From positions 8,421-72,420 of the forward strand of contig CAYSAY010000004.1 in NCBI GenBank assembly GCA_964429215.1: DNA of 64,000 bases, in the 5' to 3' direction. A program made the position numbers and the translations under genes. How positions within the stretch are numbered: position 1 is the first letter of the stretch; every line of letters starts with the position of its first letter. This stretch comes from an uncultured Gammaproteobacteria bacterium (GTDB taxonomy: Bacteria; Patescibacteriota; Microgenomatia; UBA8517). Below are positions 23,156 to 41,382 of the stretch, piece by piece. Below the pieces are notes generated by a model. That model ran no database searches and was not told where the DNA came from. It saw only the letters and a program-made list of their open reading frames with translations.

Positions 23156-23503
23156 ATGATAACAATACAGGATAGATCGTTTAAGTTTGGAGTTGAGATT
23201 GTTAAATTAACATTTTTATTACCCAAATCTCCAGCTGGATATGCATTGGCCAGTCAAATTGTTCGGTCTGGCACTTCGATTGGTGCAAATATTGAAGAAG
23301 CTCAAGGCGCTTCATCAAAGAAGGATTTTGTAAATAAGATGCAAATTTCACTCAAGGAAGCTCGAGAAACTTACTTTTGGCTAAAAATATTAAGAGAATC
23401 TAAATTGGTCCAGTTGGAAAATATAAGCTACTTATTGCAAGAGTGTGAAGAAGTGGTTAAAATCTTAATAACAATAGTCAAAAATTCAAAACTTAATAAA
23501 TAA
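23156..23503 (+). CDS. four-helix-bundle protein (23S rRNA intervening-sequence protein family, TIGR02436-like)
   Basis: FKFGVEIVKLTFLLP...SGTSIGANIEEAQGASSKKDFVNKMQISLKEARETYFWLKI is the typical family signature. Confidence 0.8.
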   Translation: MITIQDRSFKFGVEIVKLTFLLPKSPAGYALASQIVRSGTSIGANIEEAQGASSKKDFVNKMQISLKEARETYFWLKILRESKLVQLENISYLLQECEEVVKILITIVKNSKLNK

Positions 23504-23957: not shown

Positions 23958-24575
23958 TTAAAAAATATCGTTGAAGTAGCCATACGTTAGACTTGCTCTA
24001 TTTGGCCAGCCAGTTGTTACGTTAGTAAAGTCTGTAGTGCCTTTTGCATACCTATATGCTCCAGTTGATAACTCTTTTTGTATAAACCAAGCACCATCTT
24101 TATTTACAAAACCATAGTAGACATCAACTCCTGCATCATCAACTTCGGTAATGTTGTAGCCGTCAGTTGGCTTTTTCTCGGCTGGGTCAATTTGCACACC
24201 TGCCAAGTTTTTAACTGCTACAGTTCCTGGTCCTGGCATGCTTCCAAAGAATGCAGCTTCTGTACTTTTGGTAAAAATTGTCATTAAGAAGAGCGATCCT
24301 CCAGCAGCACCAATTAATTTCAAAAATTTTCTGCGCTCAGGATCATAATCTTTATTTTTTACTTTATTTAAGCTATCAGGAATTATATCTAATACTGGGT
24401 CAATTACAACTTTTGCCTGCCTTTTCTTAGGTAGTATTAACATCCCAAAATAGAAGGCGATAGGGAAGAAAATGACGGCACTTATTAACTCTGGATAGCT
24501 TTTTGTATCTAAAAATCCAGCAACAGTCATAAATGTTGTCAGTAGAAATGAATATAAAACAATTAGACCCTTCAT
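23958..24575 (-). CDS. membrane protein with internal twin-arginine-like motif (ERRKFLKLIGAAGGSLF) and C-terminal extracytoplasmic domain
   Basis: Two N-terminal TM helices, then RRKFLK followed by a hydrophobic stretch. Confidence 0.4.
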   Translation of the reverse strand: MKGLIVLYSFLLTTFMTVAGFLDTKSYPELISAVIFFPIAFYFGMLILPKKRQAKVVIDPVLDIIPDSLNKVKNKDYDPERRKFLKLIGAAGGSLFLMTIFTKSTEAAFFGSMPGPGTVAVKNLAGVQIDPAEKKPTDGYNITEVDDAGVDVYYGFVNKDGAWFIQKELSTGAYRYAKGTTDFTNVTTGWPNRASLTYGYFNDIF

Positions 24576-24808
24576 ATAATTTTAGTTAATGTATATAGAA
24601 TTAATATTACTAATATTCCAAGGTAAACTAAAGCAGATTTTTTATGTGTTGTTAGCTGAAAGTCATCAGAGTTTGTAAATAGTTCTGCTAAAAAGTAGGC
24701 GGGGATTGGGAGAAAGAAAAAACCCAAATACGGTGCAGTTGTGGTTGTGGTCAAAAATATAAAAGTTGAAAGCCCTGCCAGTATTATGACAAATAGTTTG
24801 TTGATCAT
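24572..24808 (-). CDS. small two-TM membrane protein
   Basis: Hydrophobic 78-aa ORF; 4-bp overlaps with both neighbours. Confidence 0.3.
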   Translation of the reverse strand: MINKLFVIILAGLSTFIFLTTTTTAPYLGFFFLPIPAYFLAELFTNSDDFQLTTHKKSALVYLGILVILILYTLTKII

Positions 24809-25086
24809 GGTGTAGGTGTCGTTTCTATTAATCCTGTAACGTCTAACGCTTCTCTTAGGGCTCTAATCTCTGCTTTAATTAACGTCAAGTCAGATTGAAT
24901 AGTAGCGGGGGTTGTAGGAACAGTTACGGGTGACGGGTTACCTGCCTGCGCAGGCAGGCGAGTTACGGGTTGCGGGACAGATATTGCAACAGGATTACTT
25001 ACTTTAGATAAAATATATAAATTAAAGCCTAGATTAATTAGGCATAGAAAGAAGATAATAACTAAGACTCTGGCGTACTTTTCCAT
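24805..25086 (-). CDS. small TM protein with Pro/Thr-rich tail
   Basis: N-terminal TM helix, PVTVPTTPATIQ tail, overlap-coupled with neighbours. Confidence 0.3.
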   Translation of the reverse strand: MEKYARVLVIIFFLCLINLGFNLYILSKVSNPVAISVPQPVTRLPAQAGNPSPVTVPTTPATIQSDLTLIKAEIRALREALDVTGLIETTPTP

Positions 25087-25105
25087 GGTTATAATAATAT
25101 TAACA

Positions 25106-27022
25106 CTATTCCTGTGGGATTTGAACTTGAGGATCTATGACTGGCTCTGCAGGTTGTGCTGGTGGGGTAGTTAATTCCTCTGTTGGTGCTGGTAATGTTT
25201 CTTCTTCAGTTGGCTTCTCAACTACTTTCTCATCCATTTTCTCAAGTTCTGACTTTGCAAGTTCGTAATCTTTTGAATCTTTTTCAACCAATTGCAATAC
25301 TAAGGTCATTTGTGCTTTTGCCTTATCTATTTCATTGTTATTTTTATAGGCCATGGCTAAATTATAATGTGAATTAGCAAAATCAGGTTTAGCGAGGACT
25401 GCCAGTTCAAATATCTTAATTGCATCTGAATATTTTTGTTCAGCAAAGTAAATTCCACCTAGTTTTATCCTCAAGATTGGATTAATTGGTTCCAAAAAAA
25501 TTGCTTGACCATAACTTTCGACAGCAAAGGTATTCGCATCTTTTGCGAAAGACGAAATGTTACTGTATATATCGCCAAGAGCCTCCCAGTTTGATGATTT
25601 TCTAGGATTTACTGAAACGCCTGCTTTTCCTTCTCTTATTGCTTGCTGAATAAGTTCTGCAATTGTTCTTTTGTCCTCATCTGTAATATCTGCTTTTTTG
25701 GCTAAATTTGTAGCTATTGCAATGTTTATTTCAGCAGAAGCCTTATGATATCTGTCTATGTAAGGGTTTATGGCGATTGCCTTATTTAAATTGTCATAAG
25801 CCTTCACGCCATCATTTGCAGAAATAGCTTTTAAGGCCACACCGTATATATATTCTGAATAAAATGCCTTGTAGCCAAAAAATATTCCTAATACTATAAA
25901 TGCAATGAGCGGTATAGAAAGTAAAATTATAGGTAACTTTGAAGAAAAACGACCAAAGCTCATATGAGTACTGTTATTTAAGGAGATTAATATAAATATG
26001 ATTGGTAATGTAACAGATGGAATAGGTAAGAGTATTGATATCAGGCTAAGGGCGACCACTCCGTAGTAAACATTATTTTGTTTATTATCTTTACTTAATG
26101 ATTTAACTAATATAATTACAAAGACTACAAGGCCTAGAAGTCCCACTTCAGAAAGAATTGTAAATAAATTATTAGAAGATACAATGAATTTATTGTTCCA
26201 GTTTGGAGTGTTGTTAAATTCAATTGGCCTTAATTTACTAAATCCTTCATTAAAATTTGATGGACCAAAACCAAGTAATGGGCTTTGTTTAATTGTGTCA
26301 ATCGCAATTGACCAACCAGTTTTGATTGATGGTAATTTTAATGACGTTTCTTTGCCCGGAAGAAGTGCAAAAATATTAAATCCAAGTGCTACTAAAATAA
26401 CTAAACTTGAAGCTCCATAAATCGCTTTTTGAGTTAGGTTTGAAACCTTAAGAGTTTTATTTATTGATACTGAAACTATTGTGACAAAAAATACTATAGT
26501 GCTCAGTAAATTGCCGAATATTTGGAAATTTTTTGGGACTACCCCAAAGAATGAAAATAACTGTACCAAAGACGCAGTAATTGCGGACATGATTAAAGTA
26601 TTTTCCACAATGGCTTTATCTTTATTGTCTAGTTGGTTAGTAAAGAAGTAGAGAATTGCCCCAAAAATTACAAATGCAGAAGCTCCGGGTAAAAATAAAG
26701 AATCATATTTATTTGGGGAGATAAAGATACTTGATAATATATAGGCTAGGGTAAATAAAAGTACGTAAAAATCAAGTTTTCCTACCTTAAACTCAAAACC
26801 TCCGTCAGTAAAATACTTAACTATTTTAATTACTGCCATTAAGATAACAGAAACTGATAGTAACAATAATTTTCCTGTTTCAAATGGATTATTAAAGACT
26901 GGTAAGAGGAACAGGGGGAATAAAAATATAGTCCCAAATAACAAATATTTATCAATTAGTTTTAATAATTTAATTAGCTTCATTGTGTGTTTAAGTTTTA
27001 CAAATTTTTTGATTCTTGTCAA
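25106..27022 (-). CDS. large polytopic membrane protein with C-terminal TPR repeats and Pro-rich tail (O-antigen ligase / O-oligosaccharyltransferase-like architecture suspected)
   Basis: About ten or more TM helices and a large loop, followed by TPR-like repeats (AIAINPYIDRYHKASAEINIAIATNLAKK, YNLAMAYKNNNEIDKAKAQ). Confidence 0.45.
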   Translation of the reverse strand: MTRIKKFVKLKHTMKLIKLLKLIDKYLLFGTIFLFPLFLLPVFNNPFETGKLLLLSVSVILMAVIKIVKYFTDGGFEFKVGKLDFYVLLFTLAYILSSIFISPNKYDSLFLPGASAFVIFGAILYFFTNQLDNKDKAIVENTLIMSAITASLVQLFSFFGVVPKNFQIFGNLLSTIVFFVTIVSVSINKTLKVSNLTQKAIYGASSLVILVALGFNIFALLPGKETSLKLPSIKTGWSIAIDTIKQSPLLGFGPSNFNEGFSKLRPIEFNNTPNWNNKFIVSSNNLFTILSEVGLLGLVVFVIILVKSLSKDNKQNNVYYGVVALSLISILLPIPSVTLPIIFILISLNNSTHMSFGRFSSKLPIILLSIPLIAFIVLGIFFGYKAFYSEYIYGVALKAISANDGVKAYDNLNKAIAINPYIDRYHKASAEINIAIATNLAKKADITDEDKRTIAELIQQAIREGKAGVSVNPRKSSNWEALGDIYSNISSFAKDANTFAVESYGQAIFLEPINPILRIKLGGIYFAEQKYSDAIKIFELAVLAKPDFANSHYNLAMAYKNNNEIDKAKAQMTLVLQLVEKDSKDYELAKSELEKMDEKVVEKPTEEETLPAPTEELTTPPAQPAEPVIDPQVQIPQE

Positions 27023-27086
27023 TACTATCTATTTCAAAATGTATATAAAGATATCTTTTGATATACTAATATAACTTTTAATATTT

Positions 27087-30000
27087 CTAATTTAGATCAA
27101 TAATCCACCAGTTAAATTCAACATCGGTATCAATTGCTTCATTAAAACCAATTGTAAATTCGTTTAAATCTTTTGATTTGACATACAAAACTTTATTTTG
27201 GGTTGATGATACTGGCGTTACATATATCAAAGAATTAGTTTTTACTTTATTGTTTATAATTTTTAATTCAGTTGTGTTTGCTGTCAAAATTGCAGTTCCT
27301 GCAATTGAATTCGAATTTATTTGACCTTCAATAATTGTTGCAGATTCTGTTGCAATATCTGTAGTATTACTTCCAATAATTAAATTACCAAGAACCTTCA
27401 GATTGCCGGCAACCTCAAGGTTTCCTGTAAACAATGCGTTTCCGTCTGTGTCAATTTTGATTTTTCCAGCCATAATTTCAATTGGTGCTATTGCCAAAGA
27501 TTGGATGGATAAGGTGCCATCAATTGAGTCAAGCGATTTTGCAGTTAAGTTTTCTGCAACGAATAGGGAAGTGACAGTTGCATTTCCTGTTACAAAAAGA
27601 TTACTTGCGATAACGTCTGATATAGTTGCTGATGATGTTGCAGTATCAGTTGACCAATTAATTGCTTCTGCAAATAATGCTTGGTTGCCTTCAACTTCAG
27701 CCAAAAGTGCTTCAATCTCATCAAGTCTTTCAGACTCTATTTGATTTGCATATAATGTTCCAGAAATTGTTGCATCACCTGCAAATTCTGCATTTCCAGC
27801 TCCATCAATTACTGCAACTTCCTCATTATTATCTCCTTTTATAACAAGTTTTGAAGCAGTTTGGCTGTCATCAGGTTGCAAATCAATTATTAAATCAGTG
27901 TTAGCAATAGGGGAGATGATTTCAGATGTTTTCATACTTTCTATTTTTCGGTCTAATTCTTGAATTGCTCCAGCGAGTACGGCGGTTAATTTGCTGTAAT
28001 CTAGATTTTTATAACCTGCGGTGTCTGTGATGACAAGCTCTGGGAAAATCTGTTCGACATCTTGGGCAAGGAAACCAAGTGAGTTAGCGTCCCCTGTATT
28101 GTATTCGCCGTTCCAGGTGAAGCGAACGGGTTTGAGTTGTTGCACTAGTTCTAGATTGTCGGTAATGGAGGTAATATTTGTTTTTAAACGCGCATCTGAG
28201 AGGGCGGCAGTATTGTCGGTACAGGCCTCGTCGGCATTTAAGTCTAGACAAACATTACCCTTAACATCAAATAACCTGTCGGGAGTGGTGTCGCCTACAC
28301 CGACGTTGCCGGCATTAGGGTTGAGAGCGATATCTCGATAGGCAGTGCCAGGCTTCATTGCCTGAATCCAAGAATAATCCCCATCATGTACTCCAAAGAA
28401 AAGTGACTCGTCAGTGGACGTACCAGTGCCAGTGGTAAGACCCAACATACTAGACCCATTATATACAGAGGATGATCCGGTGATCTGCAATTTTGAACCA
28501 GGAGAAGTAACTCCGATGCCGACGTTGCCCCTCAGGGCTGTGGTCCCAATGCTCGTATTACCTAGTACGACCGTGTTTGTCCCAAGACCGGTGGCGTTGT
28601 AACCAATCACAATTTCGTTGGTATCGCCGTTTGCCAATGCTTTTGTCGAGTTACCAAGATATAGACTTGTATTGCTAGTCTGGTTGGCAGTTGCTCCACC
28701 TGAGATATATCTTCCAGCGTTTACACCGATTGCGTCGTTATAATAGCCAGTAGTGATGTTATAGAGAGCGTTTAGTCCTATAGCAGTGTTTTGATAACCA
28801 GTTGTATTTGATAGAAGAGTATTTATCCCTACTGCGGTGTTGTGCCAGCCAGTATTTACACTCAGAGCGTTTAAGCCTAAAGCAGTTGTACCAGGATCTA
28901 TAATCCCTGCTCTTGTTGTGCCATTGTAGATGACACCACCTGTCGTGTTGACTCTAGGCTCTTTGACACCTAGAGAGGCATCGGCAATATTATCGGTATA
29001 GGTAGTAGTGGTGTTGTCTGCAATAGTGGCTACCAATGCCAAAAGACTATTTAAGCCTCCTGCCGTAGATCGATATATCTTTCTAGATGTGACTGATGTA
29101 TCTGCTGAAACAGGAATAGCTGATAAATTGACCTGCTGATTGACAGGACTGACTACTGATGAGACTATGCCGCTTTCGGTTTCTCCGACAGCTGTGACAA
29201 AGGAGATGCGGTAGTAATAGGCTCCGTTAAGGTTGCCCGCCGTCGCATTGACGGCAACCGTAGGCGCTCCAGGGGCATCGACTTGATCGAAGCGTAGATG
29301 ACCATTTTTGAGATTGAGCTTTTGAGTAGGAGTTGTTGTCCCGATGCCGACGTTGCCAGAGTTGTTTATAGTCATTCTGTAGGATGGGGTAAATGTATTT
29401 CCGATAGCAGTAGTACTGTCAGTATGAAACGATATCGCGCCTCCTGATTGCCAGATGCCTGAGGCACCTCCAGCAGCTCTGAATGTCCACGCATTGGCGT
29501 CGGTAATAGCAGTTCCAGTATATTCAGCTCCTCCGGAAATCAAAGCTTGACCTCCGCCATCTGAAGTGAGATAGAGGCCTTCATTAGTTGTACTTTGTCT
29601 TAAGTTAAACCCAGATTTATTTGCAGCATTTGCTACTGTAACGAGCTGATCTGGAGCTGTTATCCCGATGCCGACGTTGCCAGAGGTAGGGGCCAAAAGT
29701 ATGTTGTTAAAGCCTGTCTGATTACCTTGGATTGATAAAGCACCAGTCGCACTAATTCTAGTAAAATCAAAACCACTTGTATCGCTAGCATTACTAAGTC
29801 TGAGAATGATTGCATCACTAGTAACTTGAGAAACAACGAGTTTACCACCCGGTGCAGTCGTTCCAATACCGACATTGCCAGTGGAATCAATCCTCATCCT
29901 TTCGTTTGTAGCGGAATTTCCTGTGCCAAAACGAATATCACCTGAATATCCAGATGTGCCACTTGTTCCGAACTCTATCCAAGATAAGTTGTTATATCCA

Positions 30001-33000
30001 TTATCTATTGCATACGAACCAGAGGCAATAGAAGAGTTTAATCTAATACCAGTATAACTCCAATCTGCAGAGGCTGAATTTTTCGAAGATGTCATGGTCA
30101 ATCCACGCCAAAGATTACTACCACCCTCTTTGTACTCGAATTTATCTAAGAAGCTATGGCTAGAATAGGTAGTACTGTTTGGTGCAGTAAAACCTTGAAG
30201 ATGGAGATTGGCGGCTGGAGCTGTGACTCCTATTCCAACATAACCTAAATCAGTCCCCGCACCACCTTTGATTGTCATCCTTGTAGCATTAGTATCACCG
30301 GTTGAGACCGTGACATCGTCTGTAGATGTGCCACCAGCCAGTACTAATCCTCCACCAGTTGAGTTAACTGTGTACGAACCAGTTCCTATACTAGTATTTG
30401 TGTAGTTGCCGACCGATACATGTTGCAAGGTAATTCCATCAGTTCTACCTGCGCCAACTAATCTAAAATCATCATCTCCAACCACATCTAATTGATAATT
30501 AGGTAAATTTGTTCCAACGCCAACTCTGCCTGCGTTTGTAATAACAAACTTTGGTGTACCTGAAGCACTGGCTGTAAACAAATCTCCCGCTTTGGTTTGG
30601 TTTACTATTAATGCAGCGTGACCTACATTTCCACCTGCGGGATTTTCTATTACCCAGTTTGTTGCTGTTAAATAATTAGCAAGTGTCGTTGGTGTTGCTG
30701 AAAATGTAATTGTAGATGCCCCCGCTGAATTTGCCAGAATTCCACCATCCATAAAGAGTGTGCCATCAATCTCGAGATCTTGTAATAATAAGTCGTTTGA
30801 TGCACTAATGTTTCCACCATGCGCTGTAGTTGCGATTCCTAACCTTGAATAAGTAGCGGCAGTTGTACCTCCAACTTGAAGAACTCCAGATATAGCTAAA
30901 TCATCACTTATATCAACTTCATCAGTTCCATCAGAAATAGCACCTCCTGAAAATGTTAAATTCCCAGCATTAATAACTGCTGAATTACCTAGATCTATTC
31001 CTGCAGTTGTAAATGTTCCTGAAAGAACTATACCTTTGTTTATAGTTCCTGTTGTATCAGCAATATCTATTCCATTTGTGATATTTCCTACAGTGTTTGA
31101 AATGTGTATTGCGTCCGTTATTCCTGAGTTTCCTGCACTATCAATTAACAATGCATCAGTTACTGCAGTTGTTCCTCCTACTGTTGTATCTAATTGTTGT
31201 AGTTTAAGTAGACTTTCAGTTGCAGTATCAGTAAATAATCCAACCACAGCATTATTAATTACTAAACCATTTTGATTAGTAGCAGATCCACCATTGTTAT
31301 TTATATTAAAAGTAAATGCATCAAGTGCTCCTGTTGGTGTCCATCCAAAGGTTGTTGGATTCACTCCCATTGCTAGAGTTAAAGAGGTGGATGGAGCTGT
31401 TAATTGATCCCATCTTAAAGCAGAGGCTGTAATCCCAACAGTACATGTCAATGTTCCTGTTGCATTAGCCACAGTACAACCAGTACTTCCAGATCCACCA
31501 CCTATTAAAATATCACCAGTTGCAGTTCCATTTAAGTTGAGTGCTCCTGAACCTTTTCCATCGATGGACATTGCGACATTTGTATCGGATCCAAATGCGG
31601 TTTGAGCAACTGTATTACCAGTTGCAGATGGCGTAAAAGTAAATCCGTTAGCTGCTGTTCCCGAAACTCTGGCTAAATTAAATACAGGTATACCTGACTG
31701 GGATGCTGTTAATATATTTTGGTTACCAGTTTCGTTGAAGATGGCAAGAGCTTTACCTGTTGAAATACCGTTGACATGTAGTTTGGATGTCGGACCTGTT
31801 GTCCCAATTCCTACATAACCATTATATTGGATAGTCAATCTTGCATCAGAAACATCTGCGTTTGACGAATCACCAGTACCATCAACAGTAAGGTGAAGAC
31901 TGCCTAGTCCAAAACCAACCGCCGTGTTTTCGAATATAATTCCTGCCTTTGCATAAGAATCTGAGGGTTGGGCCAAAGTTCTAAATCTCATACCTACAGC
32001 AGTTCCTGATCCTCCTGCATTTGCGGGGTTATCAAGTGTTAAGGCGTTGACAAACGCAGTCGTTGCTGGTGTTGAAACATGTAATGGTGATGCAGAGATT
32101 CTACTACCAATACCAACCCTACCAAGTGTTAATTCTGAAACTCCAAGTGTCGATGGGTAGGCTATTGTCCCTGTTGTTCCTGTGTCTAAATATGGTGTTG
32201 CAGTATCTGACCAGTATTGGTCTTGTGCTGCTGTTGATCTTCCATATATTCTATATGCGGTGAAGCCTGTTATGTCTGTCCATGCGACGGAGCAAGATCC
32301 TGTAGATCCAGTTGTAACTGTGCTAGAAGTTTCTGATGAAGCAATTGATTCAAGACCATTTCCGTCTGTGTAACTTACTTTATAATAATATGTACCTGCA
32401 ACAAGTGTTCCTCCTGTATCGGAACATGTAGCTACAACACCTGTAGGGGCTACAAGAGTACGAAGATAAGCACCACCTCCAGTGATTTGTAATGATGAAG
32501 ATGGAGTGGTTGTTCCAATTCCAACATTAGCACCTGAAAAATAAAACGCGTCGCTTGTGTTAAAACCAAATGTTCCTGCATCTGAATCTGTGGCTTCAAA
32601 GTTAAGTGTTGGATTGGCAGATTGATCACCGCCAAATAAAAATGTTCCTAAAGATTCATCAATAGAAAATATGGAGGCGGCAAGTGTTGTGCCACCTATG
32701 GCAAAGTCATTTGTTGTCGTCGTTGGTGATATTACTGCTGATGCAAGTGACCAGATTGAAGATCCTCCACCCGTCGTTATCGCAGCGTCTAAATCATCTA
32801 GAACATCCTGAACAGTAGTTGAAGCACTATTATCAAATTCGTCGAATGCACCGATTAAAGATGCTCCAGATGTGATATTGGTTGACCCAACATCGTTTAA
32901 GCCAATTGCTCCAATCGTTAAATCTGTGCCTGTTGCCAAGGTAAGACCTCCACCTGATGTAAAATCAGTGCCTGCGGCACCAATATTTGTAATAATTGAG

Positions 33001-34820
33001 TTTCCAGCATCTATTCCAGCAGTTGTAAATGTTCCAGAAAGTACAATACCTTTATCAATTGTTCCAGTAGTATCAGCAATATCAATTGCATTTGTAATAT
33101 TTCCTACGGTATTTGAAATATGAATTGCGTCCGTTATTCCAGAATTTCCTGCAGAATCAATTAATAATGCGTCTGTAACAGCAGTTGTACCAGTTCCTGT
33201 AGTGTCTAATTGTTGAAGTTTAAGTAATGATTCAGTAGCAACATCAGTAAATGCTCCTACAACTGCATTATTTATCACAAGTCCATTTTGTGCTGTTGTA
33301 GATCCACCATTATTGTTTACATTCATTGTAAATGCATCTAATGCTCCTGTTGGTGTCCATCCAAAGGTTGTTGGATTCACTCCCATTGCTAGAGTTAAAG
33401 CCCCATCAGGAGCCGTCAAGGCATTCCATTTTGATGTAGTAGCAAAAGTAGAGAAGTCAGTTACACAGTTTGTTTCTCCATCTCCTGTACAGAATTTTCC
33501 AGCTTCTACCGTGTCATCTGTTACTGCATTATTGTAAAGTGAGATTCCTGATGAAACATATAAATCTGCTCCAACTGTGGTAAGTCCTGTTGAATCAACT
33601 GAAAATTTGGAAGTAGGGGAAACACCACTTAAAAAATTAATAAAATTATAACCACTGGCTGCACTTGCAACTGTTCCAGAATAAAGAGAACCAGAAGTTA
33701 TGTTTGCATTAGTTGCATTTACGAATCCATTTGCAGATAGCCCAGGAGCTGCACCTTCAAAAGTTAAATCGAGTGTTCCAACACCATCTGGATTAATTGT
33801 TACCACACCATTACTTGTGTTTGGTGTGCTGATTGTCATTGCTAAGCCTTCAACTGCAAAAGTTCCAGAAGTTGATTGTAATTTTGGAGATGCGTTAGCA
33901 AGAACAAGTGTTCCTGAAGAATTTATGTAAGGTATTGTAGAAGTTCCTGTACCTGCTGGGAAGCCTTGAAGTGTTTCAGAGTTTAAAGCATAGGCAACTG
34001 TAGCAATCTGTATCCTAGGGGTCGCTTCTGCATCAGCCGCAACTGTAACTCCTACCCAGACTGCAGAGTTTTCAGAGAATACTGATGAAGCAATTTCAGC
34101 TCCACAGCTAGAACCTAAAAGAGTTGAAAATATTCCATCTTGATCAGGTGTTATGGAACAAGTTCCAGAGTTCCAAAGAGTAGTTCCACCTGAACTTGCA
34201 TCATATAACCTAAAAACTACGTTTGTGGCAGTTGTAATTGGGTTACCAACATTACTTGTCAGTCTTCCTTGAAAAGATAAAAATCTATTAGGTCTGGTTA
34301 ATGCTGCAGGGAAAGCAAGTGATCTATCAGCTGAATAAAAGACTTGATCATAGAAGGCATAACCAGATACTGAAGTGAATAGGATTAATATAGCTATGTG
34401 AATGTAAGTAGCCAAAGGATATGAGTGATATTTTTTGTACCAGTTTGGTCTTGTAAAGAACACTTTGAACAAAGCATTTTTAATTTTTGGTTTAGTCTCA
34501 AATTTTGCCAAAATTCTATCTTGCCATGACTTAATTATCTTCTTGTAGCTAGAAACGTTTTCAACACCTTCCATAAAGTTGTGTCCCATAAAGCTTGAAT
34601 AGCTACGAAGTGTAGAAAGCCTTCTGTTAAGTGTGGAAAGTGGGGTAGTTAATTTCTCAGTCTCAATATATTCTGTAACTAAGCTTCTGTCGATCTTTCT
34701 ATCCTTTGAAAAGTGTAAGAAATTGACGATATCAGACTTGTAATACTTCAAAGACTTCTGTGAAACACCACGAAGACTTAAATATTTCAAAAACTCTTCA
34801 ATTTTGTTTGTGGCAGTCAT
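27087..34820 (-). CDS. 2577-aa giant protein: N-terminal integrase-type SAM-like domain, one TM helix, huge Thr/Gly/Ala-rich fibre region with GNVGIGTTxPxxKL tail-fibre repeats, Peptidase_S74 intramolecular chaperone domain, ~290-aa C-terminal extension
   Basis: N-terminus IEEFLKYLSLRGVSQKSLKYYKSDIVNFLHFS...LSTLNRRLSTLRSYSSFM resembles the XerD N-terminal SAM-like fold. TM helix is YPLATYIHIAILILFTSVSGYAFY. Chaperone domain is LSDARLKTNITSITDNLELVQQLKPVRFTWNGEYNTGDANSLGFLAQDVEQIFPELVITDTAGYKNLDYSKLTAVLAGAIQELDRKIE. Confidence 0.75.
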   Translation of the reverse strand: MTATNKIEEFLKYLSLRGVSQKSLKYYKSDIVNFLHFSKDRKIDRSLVTEYIETEKLTTPLSTLNRRLSTLRSYSSFMGHNFMEGVENVSSYKKIIKSWQDRILAKFETKPKIKNALFKVFFTRPNWYKKYHSYPLATYIHIAILILFTSVSGYAFYDQVFYSADRSLAFPAALTRPNRFLSFQGRLTSNVGNPITTATNVVFRLYDASSGGTTLWNSGTCSITPDQDGIFSTLLGSSCGAEIASSVFSENSAVWVGVTVAADAEATPRIQIATVAYALNSETLQGFPAGTGTSTIPYINSSGTLVLANASPKLQSTSGTFAVEGLAMTISTPNTSNGVVTINPDGVGTLDLTFEGAAPGLSANGFVNATNANITSGSLYSGTVASAASGYNFINFLSGVSPTSKFSVDSTGLTTVGADLYVSSGISLYNNAVTDDTVEAGKFCTGDGETNCVTDFSTFATTSKWNALTAPDGALTLAMGVNPTTFGWTPTGALDAFTMNVNNNGGSTTAQNGLVINNAVVGAFTDVATESLLKLQQLDTTGTGTTAVTDALLIDSAGNSGITDAIHISNTVGNITNAIDIADTTGTIDKGIVLSGTFTTAGIDAGNSIITNIGAAGTDFTSGGGLTLATGTDLTIGAIGLNDVGSTNITSGASLIGAFDEFDNSASTTVQDVLDDLDAAITTGGGSSIWSLASAVISPTTTTNDFAIGGTTLAASIFSIDESLGTFLFGGDQSANPTLNFEATDSDAGTFGFNTSDAFYFSGANVGIGTTTPSSSLQITGGGAYLRTLVAPTGVVATCSDTGGTLVAGTYYYKVSYTDGNGLESIASSETSSTVTTGSTGSCSVAWTDITGFTAYRIYGRSTAAQDQYWSDTATPYLDTGTTGTIAYPSTLGVSELTLGRVGIGSRISASPLHVSTPATTAFVNALTLDNPANAGGSGTAVGMRFRTLAQPSDSYAKAGIIFENTAVGFGLGSLHLTVDGTGDSSNADVSDARLTIQYNGYVGIGTTGPTSKLHVNGISTGKALAIFNETGNQNILTASQSGIPVFNLARVSGTAANGFTFTPSATGNTVAQTAFGSDTNVAMSIDGKGSGALNLNGTATGDILIGGGSGSTGCTVANATGTLTCTVGITASALRWDQLTAPSTSLTLAMGVNPTTFGWTPTGALDAFTFNINNNGGSATNQNGLVINNAVVGLFTDTATESLLKLQQLDTTVGGTTAVTDALLIDSAGNSGITDAIHISNTVGNITNGIDIADTTGTINKGIVLSGTFTTAGIDLGNSAVINAGNLTFSGGAISDGTDEVDISDDLAISGVLQVGGTTAATYSRLGIATTAHGGNISASNDLLLQDLEIDGTLFMDGGILANSAGASTITFSATPTTLANYLTATNWVIENPAGGNVGHAALIVNQTKAGDLFTASASGTPKFVITNAGRVGVGTNLPNYQLDVVGDDDFRLVGAGRTDGITLQHVSVGNYTNTSIGTGSYTVNSTGGGLVLAGGTSTDDVTVSTGDTNATRMTIKGGAGTDLGYVGIGVTAPAANLHLQGFTAPNSTTYSSHSFLDKFEYKEGGSNLWRGLTMTSSKNSASADWSYTGIRLNSSIASGSYAIDNGYNNLSWIEFGTSGTSGYSGDIRFGTGNSATNERMRIDSTGNVGIGTTAPGGKLVVSQVTSDAIILRLSNASDTSGFDFTRISATGALSIQGNQTGFNNILLAPTSGNVGIGITAPDQLVTVANAANKSGFNLRQSTTNEGLYLTSDGGGQALISGGAEYTGTAITDANAWTFRAAGGASGIWQSGGAISFHTDSTTAIGNTFTPSYRMTINNSGNVGIGTTTPTQKLNLKNGHLRFDQVDAPGAPTVAVNATAGNLNGAYYYRISFVTAVGETESGIVSSVVSPVNQQVNLSAIPVSADTSVTSRKIYRSTAGGLNSLLALVATIADNTTTTYTDNIADASLGVKEPRVNTTGGVIYNGTTRAGIIDPGTTALGLNALSVNTGWHNTAVGINTLLSNTTGYQNTAIGLNALYNITTGYYNDAIGVNAGRYISGGATANQTSNTSLYLGNSTKALANGDTNEIVIGYNATGLGTNTVVLGNTSIGTTALRGNVGIGVTSPGSKLQITGSSSVYNGSSMLGLTTGTGTSTDESLFFGVHDGDYSWIQAMKPGTAYRDIALNPNAGNVGVGDTTPDRLFDVKGNVCLDLNADEACTDNTAALSDARLKTNITSITDNLELVQQLKPVRFTWNGEYNTGDANSLGFLAQDVEQIFPELVITDTAGYKNLDYSKLTAVLAGAIQELDRKIESMKTSEIISPIANTDLIIDLQPDDSQTASKLVIKGDNNEEVAVIDGAGNAEFAGDATISGTLYANQIESERLDEIEALLAEVEGNQALFAEAINWSTDTATSSATISDVIASNLFVTGNATVTSLFVAENLTAKSLDSIDGTLSIQSLAIAPIEIMAGKIKIDTDGNALFTGNLEVAGNLKVLGNLIIGSNTTDIATESATIIEGQINSNSIAGTAILTANTTELKIINNKVKTNSLIYVTPVSSTQNKVLYVKSKDLNEFTIGFNEAIDTDVEFNWWIIDLN
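30930..31420 (-). repeat. internal long direct repeat, copy B, of the giant gene
   Basis: Near-identical DNA to 32940..33430 at a constant 2010-bp offset; encodes RWDQLTAPSTSLTLAMGVNPTTFGWTPTGALDAFTFNINNNGG... Confidence 0.7.
32940..33430 (-). repeat. internal long direct repeat, copy A, of the giant gene
   Basis: e.g. ggtgtccatccaaaggttgttggattcactcccattgctagagttaaag is present in both copies. Confidence 0.7.
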
Positions 34821-35210
34821 TTTCCGCGTTCTTTTCTTTAGCCTCGAATTATATACATTATACCGAGGTATACTAATATTAATATATACATGGGGTATGT
34901 CAACCCCGATTTAATCGGGGTCAAGAGGCTAAATAAATTTATTGTAAATAATTACAAATACATAGTTTCACACAACTTATAACAAAATTACCGCAAGCTA
35001 ATTTATCGACTTAAATATATCAGACAGTACCAAGTACATAGTGCATAGTACAAAGATAATCATCTATAGGTTGTAAATTTACGTGCCTGAGCTCTCAAAA
35101 AATCACAAATGCGGTAATTTGCGGAGAATAAAAATGGCGTTTATTAATTACTTCAAGAGTGCGGAAATCATTTTTTAACTGAAGAATATGAGGAATATAA
35201 TGTAGGTGAT

Positions 35211-35383: not shown

Positions 35384-35830
35384 ATGGAGCACGAAGAAGT
35401 AAAAAAAGAGAAAAATTACATTTGGCCTGTAGTAATTATACTAATACTACTACTTATCATGGGTCTCGTCATCTATTATCTGAAGTTTGCTGTTTTTTTA
35501 ACTCCTAAGGCAGATACTCCAAATTTAACTAACTCAATTTCGGTAAATAATTCATATATTTTTGCATCGCCCGTACGAGCAAGTGTTGATGGAGATTTAA
35601 TTAGAGTTACAGTATTTTTACTAGATGAAACAGGTTATGGTGTATTTGATAAAGAAGTTAAATTATCTAATAGTAATAGCTCAATTGTGGTTAATAATGT
35701 TCAAAGTTTGACTGACGATACTGGTAAAGCGATTTTTGACATTTCAGGAAAAAGTGCAGGAACGTATTTTCTTGAAGCTACAGTTGAAAATATAACACTT
35801 CCTCAAAGAGTTAAGATGGTTTTTTACTAG
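35384..35830 (+). CDS. membrane-anchored protein with Ig-like extracellular domain
   Basis: N-terminal TM helix, beta-rich C-terminal domain. Confidence 0.4.
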   Translation: MEHEEVKKEKNYIWPVVIILILLLIMGLVIYYLKFAVFLTPKADTPNLTNSISVNNSYIFASPVRASVDGDLIRVTVFLLDETGYGVFDKEVKLSNSNSSIVVNNVQSLTDDTGKAIFDISGKSAGTYFLEATVENITLPQRVKMVFY

Positions 35831-35831
35831 T

Positions 35832-36809
35832 ATGTTTAATTTACTTGCAGAAGTTGATGTCACAGCACAGATCGGTGCTGTAGTAGGGCCTACAGCTACC
35901 CCGACTGGGTCGGGGCAAGCAGCAACTCCGATACCAACATCAATCCCAACATTTAAACCTGTTTTTACACCTATTCCAACATTTACCCCGATTCAATCGG
36001 GGCCAACAATAGTTCCAGAAAAGCAGTTCAGAAAAGGATCATTTGCAATATATGGTTATGGCCCTGTTAATTCTGAAGTTAATTTAAATGGAATTGGGGT
36101 ATCTGCCAAAACAACTAGTGATAGCCAAGGATTTTTTGTGTTTAGCCCAATTTACTCTACATCTGCATTTTATCCTGAGCTTTGTATCCAAGCAGTTGAT
36201 AAGGATAAAAAAACAACTCAGCCTTCTTGCATTCCTGCTTTTCCTGCTACAAATAAACTTCCTTCTGTCGTTGGTCCTGTACTTCTTTCTCCTACCATAT
36301 CGCTTAGCAACAACAAAGTAGTTGTAGGAAGTAGTGCACATGCTTCAGGCATGACAATTCCAAATGCAGAAGTAGATATATATATAGCCAAAAAGGATCA
36401 AAGGCTATCACTTGTCAAGACTGCCAATGCCTATTACATACCAACAATAAAAACAAAGTCAAACGATGAAGGTCAATTTGAAATTAGTTTGCCAACAGGG
36501 GAGATATCAGGGGCAAATTTTCAGGCAGAATATAAAATTTTCGTTTCTAATAAATATGGTGAGGACTTGTCTTCAAAAAGTAACACCTTAAGTTTTGCTG
36601 TTATAACCTCTGCAAAGTCACTACTAGAAAGAATAATAGAATACTTAATAGCAAATAAAATAAGAGTGGTAGTGTTACTTGAGGCAATGGTAGCTATAAT
36701 TCTTGGTTTGATGGCCTTAAAATCAACTACACATCGCCACAAAAAGCATTCTGAAAAGGATTATGACGAAGTTGAATCTCATTTGGAGCAGTTAAAAAAA
36801 TTATCTTGA
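35832..36809 (+). CDS. Pro/Thr-rich surface protein with C-terminal TM anchor and basic tail
   Basis: ATPTGSGQAATPIPTSIPTFKPVFTPIPTFTPIQ low-complexity region; C-terminal RVVVLLEAMVAIILGLMALK then HRHKKH. Confidence 0.4.
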   Translation: MFNLLAEVDVTAQIGAVVGPTATPTGSGQAATPIPTSIPTFKPVFTPIPTFTPIQSGPTIVPEKQFRKGSFAIYGYGPVNSEVNLNGIGVSAKTTSDSQGFFVFSPIYSTSAFYPELCIQAVDKDKKTTQPSCIPAFPATNKLPSVVGPVLLSPTISLSNNKVVVGSSAHASGMTIPNAEVDIYIAKKDQRLSLVKTANAYYIPTIKTKSNDEGQFEISLPTGEISGANFQAEYKIFVSNKYGEDLSSKSNTLSFAVITSAKSLLERIIEYLIANKIRVVVLLEAMVAIILGLMALKSTTHRHKKHSEKDYDEVESHLEQLKKLS

Positions 36810-37177: not shown

Positions 37178-38182
37178 TTACTTAGGTAAATTATCTTTGA
37201 ATTTATTCTTTAGGGCTTCAAGCTCTGAGATTTCTTCTTCAAGTTTTTCTTCAAGTACAACTTGTCTTGCTTTAACCTTTTGTGAGATTAAGAATGCTAC
37301 AAACCCTATGATTAATATTGTAAATATTACAAGTAAGATTACAGTTACAGGAACTATCCAAATAAATCTTGTTTCAGTTAGTGCTTTGCCACTCTCACCA
37401 TAGTTTGCAGTTAATTCAACAGCATATTTACCAAACATCCATTGTTTACCTATTTTTGATTCATAAGCTCTCTTTGCACTAGGGAAAATGTTGTAGTCAT
37501 CAATTGTAACTCTTGAAACTTCTTTACCCATCCAGTCAGTTAGAGTAATTTGACCCTTAGGATTTATGTGGTAACCACCTTGATTTAAGATATCAAAGCT
37601 AACTTTAACTGGTCCGAATTCAAGGAAACTTGGAACTTTAAATTTGTCTATAAATGCGTATTCAACTACTGGTCCATTAACTCTAATGCTCAAAAGTCCA
37701 ACTATTCTAGGTGCTACTGCAGTCTGGCTTCCATCAGCATCTGCTGTCTGTGATAGTTGCCCTGTTTGTTCGAATATAATTGCTACATATTTTCCACCCG
37801 GTTTTGCGTCATTAGGAACTTTAACTTTAAAATTTACCTTTAAAACGTCACCTGATGCAATTGATGCACGGTCATAAGGTAATTCCACCCAATCGTTTGG
37901 TTGGTCTTCAAGTAGGATAGGCGAGCCATCATTTCCTGTAACTATAAAATCAACAGCTTTAATATTTCCTGAAATTGGTGAAATTGATTCGTTAAAAAAC
38001 TTAATCTGTAAATTCTCAGACTTTCCTGGGTCAATAGCTACTGTTTGTCTTGCTGGTGCTACAACTAAAGGAATTCTTGCCTGGGCAAGAGATTCCTTAG
38101 TTAATAATGAAAAGTTAATAGTTAATAATGCAAACACGAAAACTGCAATTGCAATTGTTTTATTGTTTTTTAATTTTTTCAT
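37178..38182 (-). CDS. cell-surface protein: signal peptide, beta-rich ectodomain, C-terminal TM anchor and cytoplasmic coiled coil
   Basis: N-terminal signal, C-terminal WIVPVTVILLVIFTILIIGFVAFLI, then charged coiled coil. Confidence 0.5.
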   Translation of the reverse strand: MKKLKNNKTIAIAVFVFALLTINFSLLTKESLAQARIPLVVAPARQTVAIDPGKSENLQIKFFNESISPISGNIKAVDFIVTGNDGSPILLEDQPNDWVELPYDRASIASGDVLKVNFKVKVPNDAKPGGKYVAIIFEQTGQLSQTADADGSQTAVAPRIVGLLSIRVNGPVVEYAFIDKFKVPSFLEFGPVKVSFDILNQGGYHINPKGQITLTDWMGKEVSRVTIDDYNIFPSAKRAYESKIGKQWMFGKYAVELTANYGESGKALTETRFIWIVPVTVILLVIFTILIIGFVAFLISQKVKARQVVLEEKLEEEISELEALKNKFKDNLPK

Positions 38183-38229
38183 AATTTTTAATTCTTAACT
38201 ATTAATTCTTAATTCTTAATTACCTTCGT

Positions 38230-39723
38230 TTAGAAGGTAGGAACAGCTGTATATTTAACCTTATTAAAGTAAAATCCTGCTGGCTGTGTTGCTGTAATAT
38301 CTATTCTATAACAAACATAGGCACTTGATGAGTCAACTGGTCCTGCATTTGTCATCAAATGTGCGGTTGATGCAGCTCTATCTTCTGATGCCTCTTGGTC
38401 CGCAAATTGCTTAGCATTAAATGTTCCTGCGCTAGTATTGTATTCAAATATGCCATCAGTACCTGTTACGTTTTGCAATGAATATCCAAGTCCTGGGAAT
38501 GATGTAGGGTCTGAACCCCAGTCTCTTAATGTTTGGTGAGTACAGCCAGTTCCGTCACATACAGTGTCTTGAATACAATCTACAGATTCTCCAGCTCCTG
38601 CACCAGTACATGCAACGCCATCTTTACCCATCTGATCGTTTTCTTCTGCGTACACCTTGTATCCTGCTGTTGAATTAGTTGAAACTGTTAGTTGGTGATT
38701 TGTGTTATGAGTTGCCGCTAAATATGTTGATGATAATGTACCCCAGGCAACAGATGTCGCGGTAGTATCAGGTGAACTCGCGGTTCTTGTTATTCCGCAA
38801 TATGAACCAGAATCAGCAGAAATTCCTGCAATTGTAAATGATAATGTTTCATCAACTGTTGCAGAGATCAATACTCCTTCAATAGGGGAAACTACGACAT
38901 CTGATTGGTCAAGTGTATTATCTCCACCATCTCTTGACTTAATATTTATCTGATACGAATCTGCTTGGCCTTGAGTATGGGTTGTAAGCGGTGCAGGATT
39001 AATTAAACCTGGTGCTGAATCAATTGTAATTGTTAGTGTGGTTCCTGCTGCGCAAGTCGTAGTTGCTCTATTGATTTGTAATAAGTGATCAGTTGATGCG
39101 GTTCCTGCAGTTAACGATGCAACTGTCCAGTTAACATCAGTACAACCTGTAATTGTGATATCAGAGGTTGTCATAGGACCAATATCAAATCCGTTTGTAG
39201 CTTTTGTTGCTGCAGTATCTGGAATACCATCGTTTGTTTTTCCAGTTACGTCAACCGCAGGTATTGTAATTAACAAGTCCCCGTTTGCTGGAATTACTGA
39301 AGTTGTTACAAATGAGAGAATTAAACTTCCTGATTGTGTTGCAACTACGTAATCTGTTGCTAATAATGTGGAAGATAGAGCCGTTGACATATTAAAAGTA
39401 TTTGCCCCAATGATGTTTGCGACAGAATAGTTCACGTTTCCGTTACATCCGTTTTCAGTTGCGTTAGGAAAACAAACTGTGTCTTTTGGAAAGAGGTGAT
39501 TGGTATTATTGTCTGCATTTCCTGAAGCATCAGTTGTAACTGTTGAGGAACCAGAAGTTCCTGAAGCTACACCACCTTTATAAGAAAATCTTGCATTTGA
39601 TAAGGTTGCAGAAGCAGAAGTAAAGTTTGCTGAATAAGTTTTTTTGGAAGGTAGTACAAAACGATACACAAGACCACAAAACACTAAAATTAAAGCAAAA
39701 GTAAGTATTTTGTTTTTGGTCAT
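38230..39723 (-). CDS. secreted Thr-rich protein, C-terminal domain paralogous to the 241-aa protein
   Basis: Signal peptide; C-terminus ...KQFADQEASEDRAAS...YRIDITATQPAGFYFNKVKYTAVPTF, compare ...RQFADRSNTES...YKVNIGTGQPSGVYQNVITFIAIPSY. Confidence 0.5.
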   Translation of the reverse strand: MTKNKILTFALILVFCGLVYRFVLPSKKTYSANFTSASATLSNARFSYKGGVASGTSGSSTVTTDASGNADNNTNHLFPKDTVCFPNATENGCNGNVNYSVANIIGANTFNMSTALSSTLLATDYVVATQSGSLILSFVTTSVIPANGDLLITIPAVDVTGKTNDGIPDTAATKATNGFDIGPMTTSDITITGCTDVNWTVASLTAGTASTDHLLQINRATTTCAAGTTLTITIDSAPGLINPAPLTTHTQGQADSYQINIKSRDGGDNTLDQSDVVVSPIEGVLISATVDETLSFTIAGISADSGSYCGITRTASSPDTTATSVAWGTLSSTYLAATHNTNHQLTVSTNSTAGYKVYAEENDQMGKDGVACTGAGAGESVDCIQDTVCDGTGCTHQTLRDWGSDPTSFPGLGYSLQNVTGTDGIFEYNTSAGTFNAKQFADQEASEDRAASTAHLMTNAGPVDSSSAYVCYRIDITATQPAGFYFNKVKYTAVPTF

Positions 39724-40655
39724 TTTTTTAAGATTGGTAATTTAAATATCCTACGATATCTAAATGTTGTCAATAGGAATATAAGTATCGCAACTAACAT
39801 AAATGGAAAAACGTAAGTCACAGTTTCTGCTTTATAAATTTTAGTATCATCATCCATCTGAAATTCTAATTTATGGGTAATTTTACCTAAAAATATGTTA
39901 TGAGTTGCTTTGCATTCATCTAAGTTTTCATCTTTCAAACATAATAAATTTCTGTTTGATCCTGAAAGAATATTTAAGTTTGCAAGCTTTAAAGTTTCAT
40001 CACCAGAAATAATTTTGCCATTAGGTTTCCAAAATGAATTTCCATTGTTTCTTAAAACAAGGGTATAGGGTATAGGGTTTAGGAAGGAGTCGATGAGTTT
40101 AGGAGCTGTAAATTCAATAATTTCAGCAGATTTTTTAGGGTTACCATCTTTTGAAACTGTAACCAGTATGTTTGAACCTATTATAGTTTTATAAAAAGTA
40201 CTTGCCTGACCCAAAACATCTGTAGGGACTGTTGTCTCAATTATTAAAGTCAAAAAATGATCGGTTTCTTCAGTGCCTTCCGGTGGATTTATGGTTACTG
40301 TAAAATCAGTTCTGTTTCCGTTTTTAAGAGAGAAAGCATCTTGATTGAATTTAACCCAATCTGGAGCCACTTCGTCAGTAAGTTCAACTGTACCATCAGT
40401 TGAATCTGGGATAAAGTATAAAATTTTTGGAATTAAAATTACATCCCCACCATCGTTTGTTATAGTAAATACTTGTTTAATCTCTTTACCAGGAGCAATC
40501 ATAACCTCAAAAAGGGGAGGGGTGATAGAAAGATTTATTGCTTGAGCGCTAACTGTTTTAGGGTATAGGGTGTAGGGTATAGCGTATAAACAGGACAATA
40601 ATACAAATATTTTTATCAATCTAAACCCTAAACCCTTTTCCTTGTAGTTTTTCAT
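39720..40655 (-). CDS. cell-surface protein with signal peptide and C-terminal TM anchor
   Basis: N-terminal signal; C-terminal FPFMLVAILIFLLTTF followed by RYRRIFK. Confidence 0.5.
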   Translation of the reverse strand: MKNYKEKGLGFRLIKIFVLLSCLYAIPYTLYPKTVSAQAINLSITPPLFEVMIAPGKEIKQVFTITNDGGDVILIPKILYFIPDSTDGTVELTDEVAPDWVKFNQDAFSLKNGNRTDFTVTINPPEGTEETDHFLTLIIETTVPTDVLGQASTFYKTIIGSNILVTVSKDGNPKKSAEIIEFTAPKLIDSFLNPIPYTLVLRNNGNSFWKPNGKIISGDETLKLANLNILSGSNRNLLCLKDENLDECKATHNIFLGKITHKLEFQMDDDTKIYKAETVTYVFPFMLVAILIFLLTTFRYRRIFKLPILKK

Positions 40656-40656
40656 A

Positions 40657-41382
40657 TTAATAAGATGGTATTGCTATAAAAGTAATCACATTTTGATAAA
40701 CTCCACTAGGTTGTCCAGTTCCGATATTCACTTTATAAGTAATAGTAGCAGTTCTACTTCTTCCTACATTTCCAGAAGTCATAATTGTTGCAGGGCTTTC
40801 TGTGTTACTCCTATCAGCAAACTGCCTGTAATATGTTGAGTTGGTAAAGTCTGTAGATACATCATCCCCAGTCATGTTAAATCCAAACCCGTATTTGGCT
40901 GAAGATGTCCAGACTGCAGCTGCAGTCTCAGAGCAAGTAGTATCACAAAGAGTATCAATAATAGTTCCTGATCCTGTCCTTGTTTTTAATGGATTATTTT
41001 CAGAAGCTTTTACAGAATATCCTCCAGCTCCACCAGCAGAAACAACTATAGTTGAGGTTGTTGTAACTGGTGTATTTGGAGATAAAGTTCCAAAGTTCTT
41101 TTGAATGTCACTTATTGAAAATGAAAATGGAATAATCGAATTTATGTATTGGAAACCTGCCTTAACTCTGTATCCTGTCGATGAATATTCTCCCGGTCCT
41201 GTTTGTCCTAGCGTCGTATTTAATCTGTAATTAGAGGAAGTTGGAATCCCTGCACCAGAGTTAAAATTAGGAAATATAATACGGTAGTTTGCGGACTCAA
41301 CTCTTTCCTGTGCGTAGACAGAAAAAGTACTAAGAACTAAGTACAAAGTACTTAGAAAAAGAATTTTAAGATTTTTTCTCAT
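40657..41382 (-). CDS. secreted protein sharing its C-terminal domain with the 497-aa protein
   Basis: Signal peptide plus paralogous C-terminal ~60 aa. Confidence 0.5.
   Translation of the reverse strand: MRKNLKILFLSTLYLVLSTFSVYAQERVESANYRIIFPNFNSGAGIPTSSNYRLNTTLGQTGPGEYSSTGYRVKAGFQYINSIIPFSFSISDIQKNFGTLSPNTPVTTTSTIVVSAGGAGGYSVKASENNPLKTRTGSGTIIDTLCDTTCSETAAAVWTSSAKYGFGFNMTGDDVSTDFTNSTYYRQFADRSNTESPATIMTSGNVGRSRTATITYKVNIGTGQPSGVYQNVITFIAIPSY

Follow-up and report, generated by a model that had tools for sequence, protein, structure and literature searches.

The closest described relatives of the protein presented here are the PglL-type O-oligosaccharyltransferase (O-OTase) of Neisseria and the ligase WaaL of Cupriavidus metallidurans (PDB 7TPG/7TPJ; CAZy GT121). 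In WaaL two arginines bind the carrier diphosphate and a histidine activates the acceptor, these residues being R191, R265 and H313 in 7TPG (PMC10920833); their equivalents are R215, R288 and H338 in E. coli WaaL and R224, R298 and H349 in PglL (PMC10920833; PMC3643930). Sister families carry an Asp or Glu at the His position (PMC10920833), and PglS is inactivated by the substitution H324A (PMC12800693). The initial annotation of the locus had drawn attention to O-OTases with TPR tails, and such enzymes do exist: a TPR motif is C-terminal in PglL and in the Gram-positive surface-layer (S-layer) O-OTase WsfB (PMC2943079). Genes of the pglL type usually adjoin that of their target, 21 of 31 lying next to pilin genes (PMC3643930). 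Here we describe a five-gene run on the minus strand (positions 23958-34820) of a 64,000-nt stretch of DNA, referred to as the window (contig CAYSAY010000004.1, positions 8,421 to 72,420; assembly GCA_964429215.1), from an uncultured, ultrasmall bacterium assigned to the Patescibacteriota, Woesebacteria-like to judge by neighbouring genes and homologues. In this run the gene of a giant fibre is followed by that of a polytopic membrane protein with a TPR domain. This 625-aa protein is best explained as a divergent member of the WaaL/PglL superfamily (Wzy_C, GT-C-B fold) with a functional link to the surface protein whose gene immediately precedes its own.

Among solved structures the best sequence-profile match to the 625-aa protein is the PglL-type enzyme (PDB 9rmk_A, recognised as such by its numbering; E 5.5e-6). 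Both proteins are polytopic, with a C-terminal outer domain described in PglL as bearing a TPR motif and with an outer loop that is catalytic in PglL; the two have a loop/helix framework in common (P-x-x-G-x-G, N335 of PglL and N-x-x-L-x-x-L-x-E-x-G-x-x-G), and both genes often stand beside that of a known or presumed protein target. The protein differs from PglL in that Ser283 occupies the position of H349, R298 is not conserved, and H400, E404 and P406 cannot be aligned. Its partner is moreover an N-terminally anchored fibre and not a pilin, pilin partners occurring only at two distant loci (L043, L044). With C. metallidurans WaaL it shares the same overall bundle of transmembrane (TM) helices and a long outer loop late in the sequence, yet the two are 9% identical with no sequence-level match, WaaL has no TPR domain, and the WaaL triad Arg-191, Arg-265 and His-313 is not recognisably kept. 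Patescibacteria are expected not to make lipopolysaccharide, and lipid A-core, the acceptor of WaaL, is not expected in this lineage.

Two further comparisons concern the TPR part. The predicted S-layer O-OTases WsfB and WsaB (Paenibacillus alvei and Geobacillus stearothermophilus, respectively), set beside our protein by description, come from monoderm hosts, combine Wzy_C with TPR (fused in WsfB, supplied by the neighbour gene wsaA for WsaB) and are encoded together with a major surface protein as target (PMC2943079). They lie, however, inside a complete S-layer glycan biosynthesis cluster, whereas the operon studied here is without glycan genes. The TPR domain itself is closest in sequence to the TPR superhelices of OGT and SPINDLY (SPY), and substrate selection by TPRs is also the logic proposed here, but the catalytic domains are unrelated (GT-B, using nucleotide-sugar donors, cytoplasmic) and the resemblance is confined to the repeat. 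The literature searched yielded neither a characterised Patescibacterial O-OTase or Wzy_C protein with a TPR, nor any account of fibres anchored through SAM-like domains. As to pilin glycosylation in Patescibacteria, the literature found offers a software prediction only, with no enzyme named.

Fold, topology and family of the polytopic protein

The gene of the polytopic protein was listed as an open reading frame (ORF) of 638 aa at 25106-27022 (minus strand), starting from the TTG at 27022. We prefer the ATG at 26983, 13 codons later, because that is where homologues start and where the identical protein is called in public records; the product is then 625 aa long (25106..26983). Apart from its length, the initial description as a 638-aa protein with about 10 TM helices and C-terminal TPR repeats was well founded. 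Hydropathy analysis gave 10 peaks, and the AlphaFold model (pLDDT 87.7, pTM 0.83) has 11 TM helices, with a 65-residue loop between TM7 and TM8, followed by a TPR superhelix at aa 405-599. The short loops carry nine Lys and Arg residues on the predicted inner side vs. two on the outer side, and this positive-inside bias together with the model places the long loop and the TPR domain outside. As modelled, the protein has a WaaL-like polytopic fold with a long extracytoplasmic loop bearing conserved residues. The TPR domain (aa 405-599; 25226..25810, minus), delimited by Pfam matches and by paired helices in the model, is predicted to lie outside the membrane and is the best-conserved part of the protein; Pfam matches at aa 520-590 are all above their cut-offs (TPR_19 34.7, TPR_2 31.6 and TPR_11 29.6 bits). 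A Pro/Glu/Thr tail, predicted to be disordered, follows at aa 601-638.

To place the protein in a family we compared 33 homologues, 83-24% identical to it, and Wzy_C was matched in 21 of them at E <= 0.01 (best 1.4e-11). As PDB sequence searches with the whole protein or the whole alignment were dominated by TPR matches, the alignment was trimmed to the membrane domain. The resulting profile found one significant chain, 9rmk_A, labelled 'Oligosaccharyltransferase', in which residues R298, P313, G316, G318 and H349 equal those published for N. meningitidis PglL (PMC3643930). Used alone against 1.84 billion proteins, the membrane domain retrieved 1510 cluster representatives at E <= 0.001 (834 at 1e-10). 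Nearly all of these are 600-700 aa long, which indicates that the membrane-plus-TPR architecture is conserved. Membership in the PglL family proper found little support for the 625-aa protein. An exosortase-type assignment was rejected, the fold being WaaL-like and a weak PrsT match reflecting mere TPR similarity.

Conserved residues of the outer loop

The large outer loop (aa 220-284 in the 638-aa numbering; 26171..26365, minus) contains the conserved residues W237, D242, K245, G251-x-G253-P254, R/K265-P266, N270 and W275, and K51, D84, K/R278 and E/D390 are further conserved residues of the outer regions. Basic residues of the outer regions are retained in 94% (K51), 91% (K245), 97% (R/K265) and 76% (K/R278) of the sequences. 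The framework common with 9rmk_A reads P-x-x-G-x-G ... N ... N-x-x-L-x-x-L-x-E-x-G-x-x-G; within it the invariant G251 and G253 correspond to G316 and G318 of PglL, P248 to P313, and the invariant N270 aligns with N335. PglL R224 as well as Q178 and N180 fall outside the aligned stretch, and we saw no convincing counterparts of the PglL-specific H400, E404 and P406. Judged from the alignments, the outer-loop site appears clearly to be under selection yet non-canonical.

Pairing with surface-protein genes in relatives

We collected 52 loci around homologues of the polytopic protein and used the 37 non-redundant ones with upstream sequence for counts, scoring in each the gene directly upstream on the same strand. 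A surface protein was found there in 30/37 loci. In 24 it ends in the conserved C-terminal domain (CTD) of the fibre, a beta-sandwich at fibre aa 2500-2577 (27090..27323, minus). Other large or giant surface proteins stand upstream in four loci, including L027 and L031 with eight Laminin_G_3 domains, and a type IV pilin fused to Laminin_G_3 in two (L043, L044). Two further loci (L008, L023) show a cluster of four GT4 genes together with a second, canonical Wzy_C gene, and in three distant ones (L014, L041, L046) the gene lies between ftsW/rodA and rpoB. At L027 a GT2-methyltransferase gene is directly downstream.

The spacing to the partner gene is often below 150 nt, down to -2 to 9 nt, and the pairing persists to 25-28% identity while the surrounding genes change. 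Every CTD protein found in ~700 kb of related loci adjoins a Wzy_C-TPR gene. The CTD partners range from 161-aa minimal forms up to giants of more than 3277 aa: in the minimal ones (161-193 aa) a Pro/Thr/Ser-rich linker joins a TM helix to the CTD, and mid-size ones (269-380 aa) have one or more SAM-like domains, a TM helix and the CTD. Comparison of gene order in the window (41742-54215) with L002 and L025 showed that the order LeuRS, ComEA, ComEC, MBL hydrolase, ArgRS and M16 peptidase is kept beside the partner pair in a relative of 35% identity; from the shared LeuRS-ComEA-ComEC neighbourhood we identify the 269-aa protein of L002 as the positional orthologue of the 2577-aa fibre. The conserved neighbourhood supports a link between the Wzy_C-TPR protein and surface proteins and agrees with the published picture for pglL-like genes.

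In L005, L022, L030, L032 and L045 the fibre and Wzy_C-TPR genes are separated by one to three inserted genes. Judged by sequence these appear to be of a mobile or defence type, akin to the AAA_14/DUF4143 ATPase and AbiEi/AbiEii genes of the window and of L001, and the gap between the two genes seems to be an insertion hotspot.

The giant fibre

The fibre gene (27087-34820, minus) encodes 2577 aa, predicted from the sequence to form a membrane-anchored surface protein in N-in type II orientation. Its sole predicted TM helix, a signal anchor detected by hydropathy, is at aa 136-154 (34359..34415, minus). Ahead of it, aa 7-77 (34590..34802, minus) match the SAM-like core-binding domain of tyrosine recombinases (Pfam PF02899, Phage_int_SAM_1; 33.2 bits vs. 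a cut-off of 22.3), which is predicted to lie on the cytoplasmic side. A domain resembling a DNA-binding, recombinase type is thus found just ahead of the only TM helix of a surface fibre. It is kept in the partner proteins at L001, L025, L028 and L045; those of L001 and L025 each have it twice, and in L028 three stretches match it.

Beyond the helix follow ~2400 residues in which Thr, Ser, Gly and Ala are abundant. Self-BLAST revealed an internal duplication of 155 aa, with copies at aa 460-614 (32979..33443, minus) and aa 1132-1286 (30963..31427, minus) that are 85% identical at the amino acid level; it was visible only with filters off, default filters giving nothing. The duplication suggests a recent internal expansion of the fibre.

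Near the C-terminus, aa 2208-2263 (28032..28199, minus) form a Peptidase_S74 intramolecular-chaperone domain (Pfam PF13884, 61.2 bits vs. a cut-off of 22). The Ser-Lys dyad motif S-D-x-x-x-K is a mark of endosialidase-type chaperone domains, and it is intact here as SDARLK at aa 2208, in keeping with membership in Peptidase_S74. The domain stands 370 residues ahead of the C-terminus; if it self-cleaves as in phage fibres, the C-terminal sandwich would be freed from the anchored shaft. It is missing from some fibre orthologues, e.g., that of L001, which keeps the C-terminal 290 aa. The last ~78 residues of the fibre, which make up the CTD, are modelled as a seven-strand beta-sandwich with a predicted pLDDT of 90-97.

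Fibre orthologues precede the Wzy_C-TPR gene in L001, L004, L018, L028, L045, L052 and others. A single-sequence search with the N-terminal 330 aa returned close orthologues only, and profiles were needed for remote ones; with the C-terminal 378 aa mostly fragments were retrieved, not full-length giants. Within the window the CTD occurs on the fibre only, and the Wzy_C-TPR gene and the gene for a 205-aa protein described below are each present in one copy.

Organisation of the putative operon and its small membrane proteins

The layout given in the initial annotation, five consecutive minus-strand genes with the fibre first, was confirmed at 23958-34820. Downstream of the polytopic protein gene are genes for two small membrane proteins of 93 aa (24805-25086, minus) and 78 aa (24572-24808, minus) and for a membrane protein of 205 aa (23958-24575, minus). 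The reported stop/start overlaps are also there, two ATGA sequences at 24805-24808 and 24572-24575 joining the 93-, 78- and 205-aa genes, and a 19-nt spacer precedes the 93-aa gene. All five genes are real, each having many homologues in Patescibacteria metagenomes. The gene past the 23958 end of the run is convergent and encodes a response regulator.

With the ATG at 26983 as start, 103 AT-rich nucleotides separate the fibre gene from the 625-aa gene. A weak promoter-like site lies inside this gap, and the consensus scan found no terminator-like site in it. Upstream of the fibre gene, within a 560-nt divergent intergenic region, the scan gave a promoter-like site (TTGACA-16/17-TAATAT; 34875..34903, minus). 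The total matches of the promoter and terminator consensus scans were not above shuffled expectation, and the position of the upstream site appears sensible. Co-transcription of the five-gene run is plausible from this arrangement.

The 93-aa protein has an N-terminal TM helix, a Pro/Thr-rich linker and a C-terminal helix. The 78-aa protein has two TM helices and bears a weak similarity to the two-TM module at the N-terminus of the 205-aa protein (E 9e-4 vs. the 205-aa family profile). Both are conserved in close relatives only. The 205-aa protein consists of two TM helices, a basic cytoplasmic linker, the sequence RRKFLK, a third hydrophobic helix and an outer beta-rich domain of ~100 aa. The twin-arginine-like motif RRKFLK, already pointed out in the initial annotation as internal, is at aa 81-86 (24318..24335, minus); NCBIfam TAT_signal (TIGR01409) scores 17.9 bits vs. 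a cut-off of 16.7, with the motif located after the two TM helices. This topology, with two Sec-type helices ahead of a twin-arginine helix and a folded domain outside, resembles the situation in actinobacterial Rieske proteins, for which a dual Sec/Tat route is described, and the 205-aa protein may be inserted by both Sec and Tat. We found neither TatA nor TatC among the window ORFs scanned; on the contig of one relative (L052) three TatA genes and TatC lie 8 kb from the 205-aa family region at 18447-19666.

The 205-aa family gave 464 matches, typically 50-70% identical, and is more conserved than the neighbouring Wzy_C-TPR protein. Its members recur downstream of the Wzy_C-TPR gene in L002, L004, L023, L025, L026, L031 and L052, often as two to three paralogues. 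Beyond the Tat-signal match, no Pfam, NCBIfam or other annotation was obtained for the 93-, 78- and 205-aa proteins. They are conserved companions, and the suggestion that they are export or glycosylation accessories found no backing: nothing marks them as either, and the RR motif is internal.

Other genes in the window

Divergent from the fibre gene, at 35384-36809 (plus strand), are genes for a Big_1-domain membrane protein of 148 aa and a Pro/Thr-rich protein of 325 aa, a pair also kept in L001 and L004. Four secreted proteins without Pfam matches are encoded in a cluster at 37178-41382 (minus). Two of them are rich in Ser and Thr and end in similar C-termini (...ITFIAIPSY and ...VKYTAVPTF), and in the other two a signal peptide is combined with a C-terminal TM helix plus charged tail; we take this layout to be reminiscent of Gram-positive WxL-type surface loci. 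At 2825-5428 and 7449-11927 (minus) lie genes for two large paralogous Thr/Gly-rich proteins of 867 and 1492 aa, which have no signal peptide and a common C-terminal sequence (...IR.RKSS.G.TKY.P.ST.GT.TSTGY...). They adjoin a RhuM-family gene and a two-component system, and the proteins may be phage- or element-derived. Two genes for '23S rRNA intervening sequence' four-helix-bundle proteins are found at 23156-23503 and 52533-52886; similar-looking small genes, recognised by eye from sequence only, are near the Wzy_C-TPR gene in L031 and L046.

Possible role of the 625-aa protein

From its fold and topology, the Wzy_C signal seen at family level and the pattern of gene neighbourhoods we propose, tentatively and as the best single explanation, that the 625-aa protein transfers glycans to protein in the manner of an O-OTase, its target being the fibre encoded upstream. 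The fibre would be inserted in the membrane through its N-terminal signal anchor, and the TPR domain, which probably recruits the exported partner, would capture the emerging polypeptide or its C-terminal beta-sandwich. A lipid-linked (polyprenyl-diphosphate) glycan would be preassembled by genes elsewhere in the genome, and the outer loop would then transfer it to hydroxyl side chains (protein O-glycosylation). Genes for a WecG/TagA-family glycosyltransferase and a polyprenyl synthase are present at 60994-61923 and 62925-63803, ~26 kb from the operon, which indicates that lipid-linked glycan chemistry exists in this genome; no other glycan-related genes were detected in the window.

Several observations weigh against this proposal. 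In an alignment anchored on both sides, by P-x-x-G-x-G and N-x-x-L-x-x-L-x-E-x-G-x-x-G, the position of PglL H349 and WaaL H338 or H313 is Ser283, and the family column holds S, N, T, Q, A or Y and never His, Asp or Glu. The equivalent of PglL R298 (I233/K234) is not conserved either. The protein itself scores only 20.2 bits against Pfam Wzy_C (PF04932; gathering cut-off 31.7, E 5.6e-4, aa 108-302) and has TPR-type NCBIfam matches with no ligase among them. The Wzy_C relationship foreseen in the initial annotation is supported by 21/33 homologues and by the match to 9rmk_A, but not by the protein's own score. No initiating transferase, flippase or glycosyltransferase is encoded in the five-gene operon. 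The argument from an 'extraordinarily Thr/Ser-rich' fibre was overstated: Ser and Thr make up 23.1% of the fibre vs. 15.5% for the rest of the window, but 23-26% of five other predicted surface proteins in the window. The Ser/Thr content is thus ordinary for surface proteins of this genome, and the fibre has no Pro/Ala/Ser-type low-complexity stretches of the kind that serve as PglL-type acceptors. In the three distant loci between ftsW/rodA and rpoB no surface protein is near the gene, which points to a more general envelope role there. Finally, the literature found contains no demonstrated glycoprotein from Patescibacteria. The dedicated O-glycosylation module first suggested is partly borne out: the fold and the link to the fibre (30/37 loci) stand, and the argument from Ser/Thr richness and the idea of export accessories do not.

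Because the His and one Arg are missing, the Pfam score stays below threshold and the operon lacks glycan genes, two other explanations keep some weight. The protein could ligate or polymerise glycan on an acceptor other than protein, e.g., a wall- or lipid-anchored surface polymer, its closeness to surface-protein genes coming from the clustering of envelope genes and its TPR domain scaffolding polymer export or wall attachment. The fold is indeed that of WaaL, a lipid-acceptor ligase, and Wzy polymerases of the same superfamily are also without the His (PMC10920833). The gene lies inside GT4 clusters at L008 and L023 and between ftsW/rodA and rpoB at L014, L041 and L046, and such a polymer could be bound by the fibre CTD, whose appearance is lectin- or tailspike-like. 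We nevertheless regard a non-protein acceptor as unlikely: L008 and L023 already possess a separate canonical Wzy_C gene, which makes the TPR-bearing copy no obvious polymerase, and a same-strand, often translationally coupled pairing with at least three unrelated surface architectures in 30/37 loci would be difficult to account for if no protein partner were involved. It is likewise improbable, to about the same extent, that the protein is a catalytically dead WaaL-fold scaffold that uses its TPR domain and outer loop to keep the anchored fibre in place or to put it together, without glycan transfer, perhaps with a share for proteins of the 205-aa family. The loss of the canonical His and of one canonical Arg, the TPR domain as the best-conserved part, the gaps of 1-9 nt to minimal partners, which suggest stoichiometric co-production, and the recurrence of the 205-aa family downstream in the seven loci named above would all fit a scaffold. 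Against it speak the invariant or near-invariant polar residues of the loop where WaaL and PglL bind substrate (N270, R/K265, K245, D242, W237, W275 and G-x-G-P), the glycosyltransferase-cluster context at some loci, and the variety of partners (CTD fibres, Laminin_G_3 giants, pilins), a range easier to reconcile with an enzyme than with one specific structural role.

That the two genes are mere same-strand neighbours with no functional link seems to us very improbable. The 103-nt AT-rich gap with its weak promoter-like site and the mobile-looking genes inserted between the pair in several relatives would agree with it, yet the pairing holds down to 25-28% identity despite changing surroundings, and all CTD proteins in the ~700 kb of related loci are next to a Wzy_C-TPR gene. 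A more speculative variant, to which we give little credence, is that the family is a His-less WaaL/PglL branch with other chemistry or another acceptor, in which the TPR domain would read the CTD as a tag and the protein would then decorate surface proteins or join them to a lipid- or wall-linked glycan. If true, this would be a dedicated tag-directed system of surface-protein maturation in bacteria that depend on cell-cell attachment.

Significance

O-OTases encoded beside their targets are already known. The novelty lies in the clade, which is Patescibacterial and very large, has the TPR domain fused and departs from the canonical active site, and in its pairing with a family of N-terminally anchored fibres that have the conserved C-terminal sandwich as their hallmark. 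How a protein without the canonical histidine would work is a question of mechanism for the WaaL/PglL superfamily, and the small partners of 161-193 aa (TM helix, linker and CTD) offer natural test substrates. Attachment to other cells is the way of life of Patescibacteria (candidate phyla radiation), and their surface fibres and pili are believed to make the contact. A large family with a glycan-ligase fold, encoded beside fibres, lectin-repeat giants and pilins, is a concrete candidate for surface-protein glycosylation in Patescibacteria.

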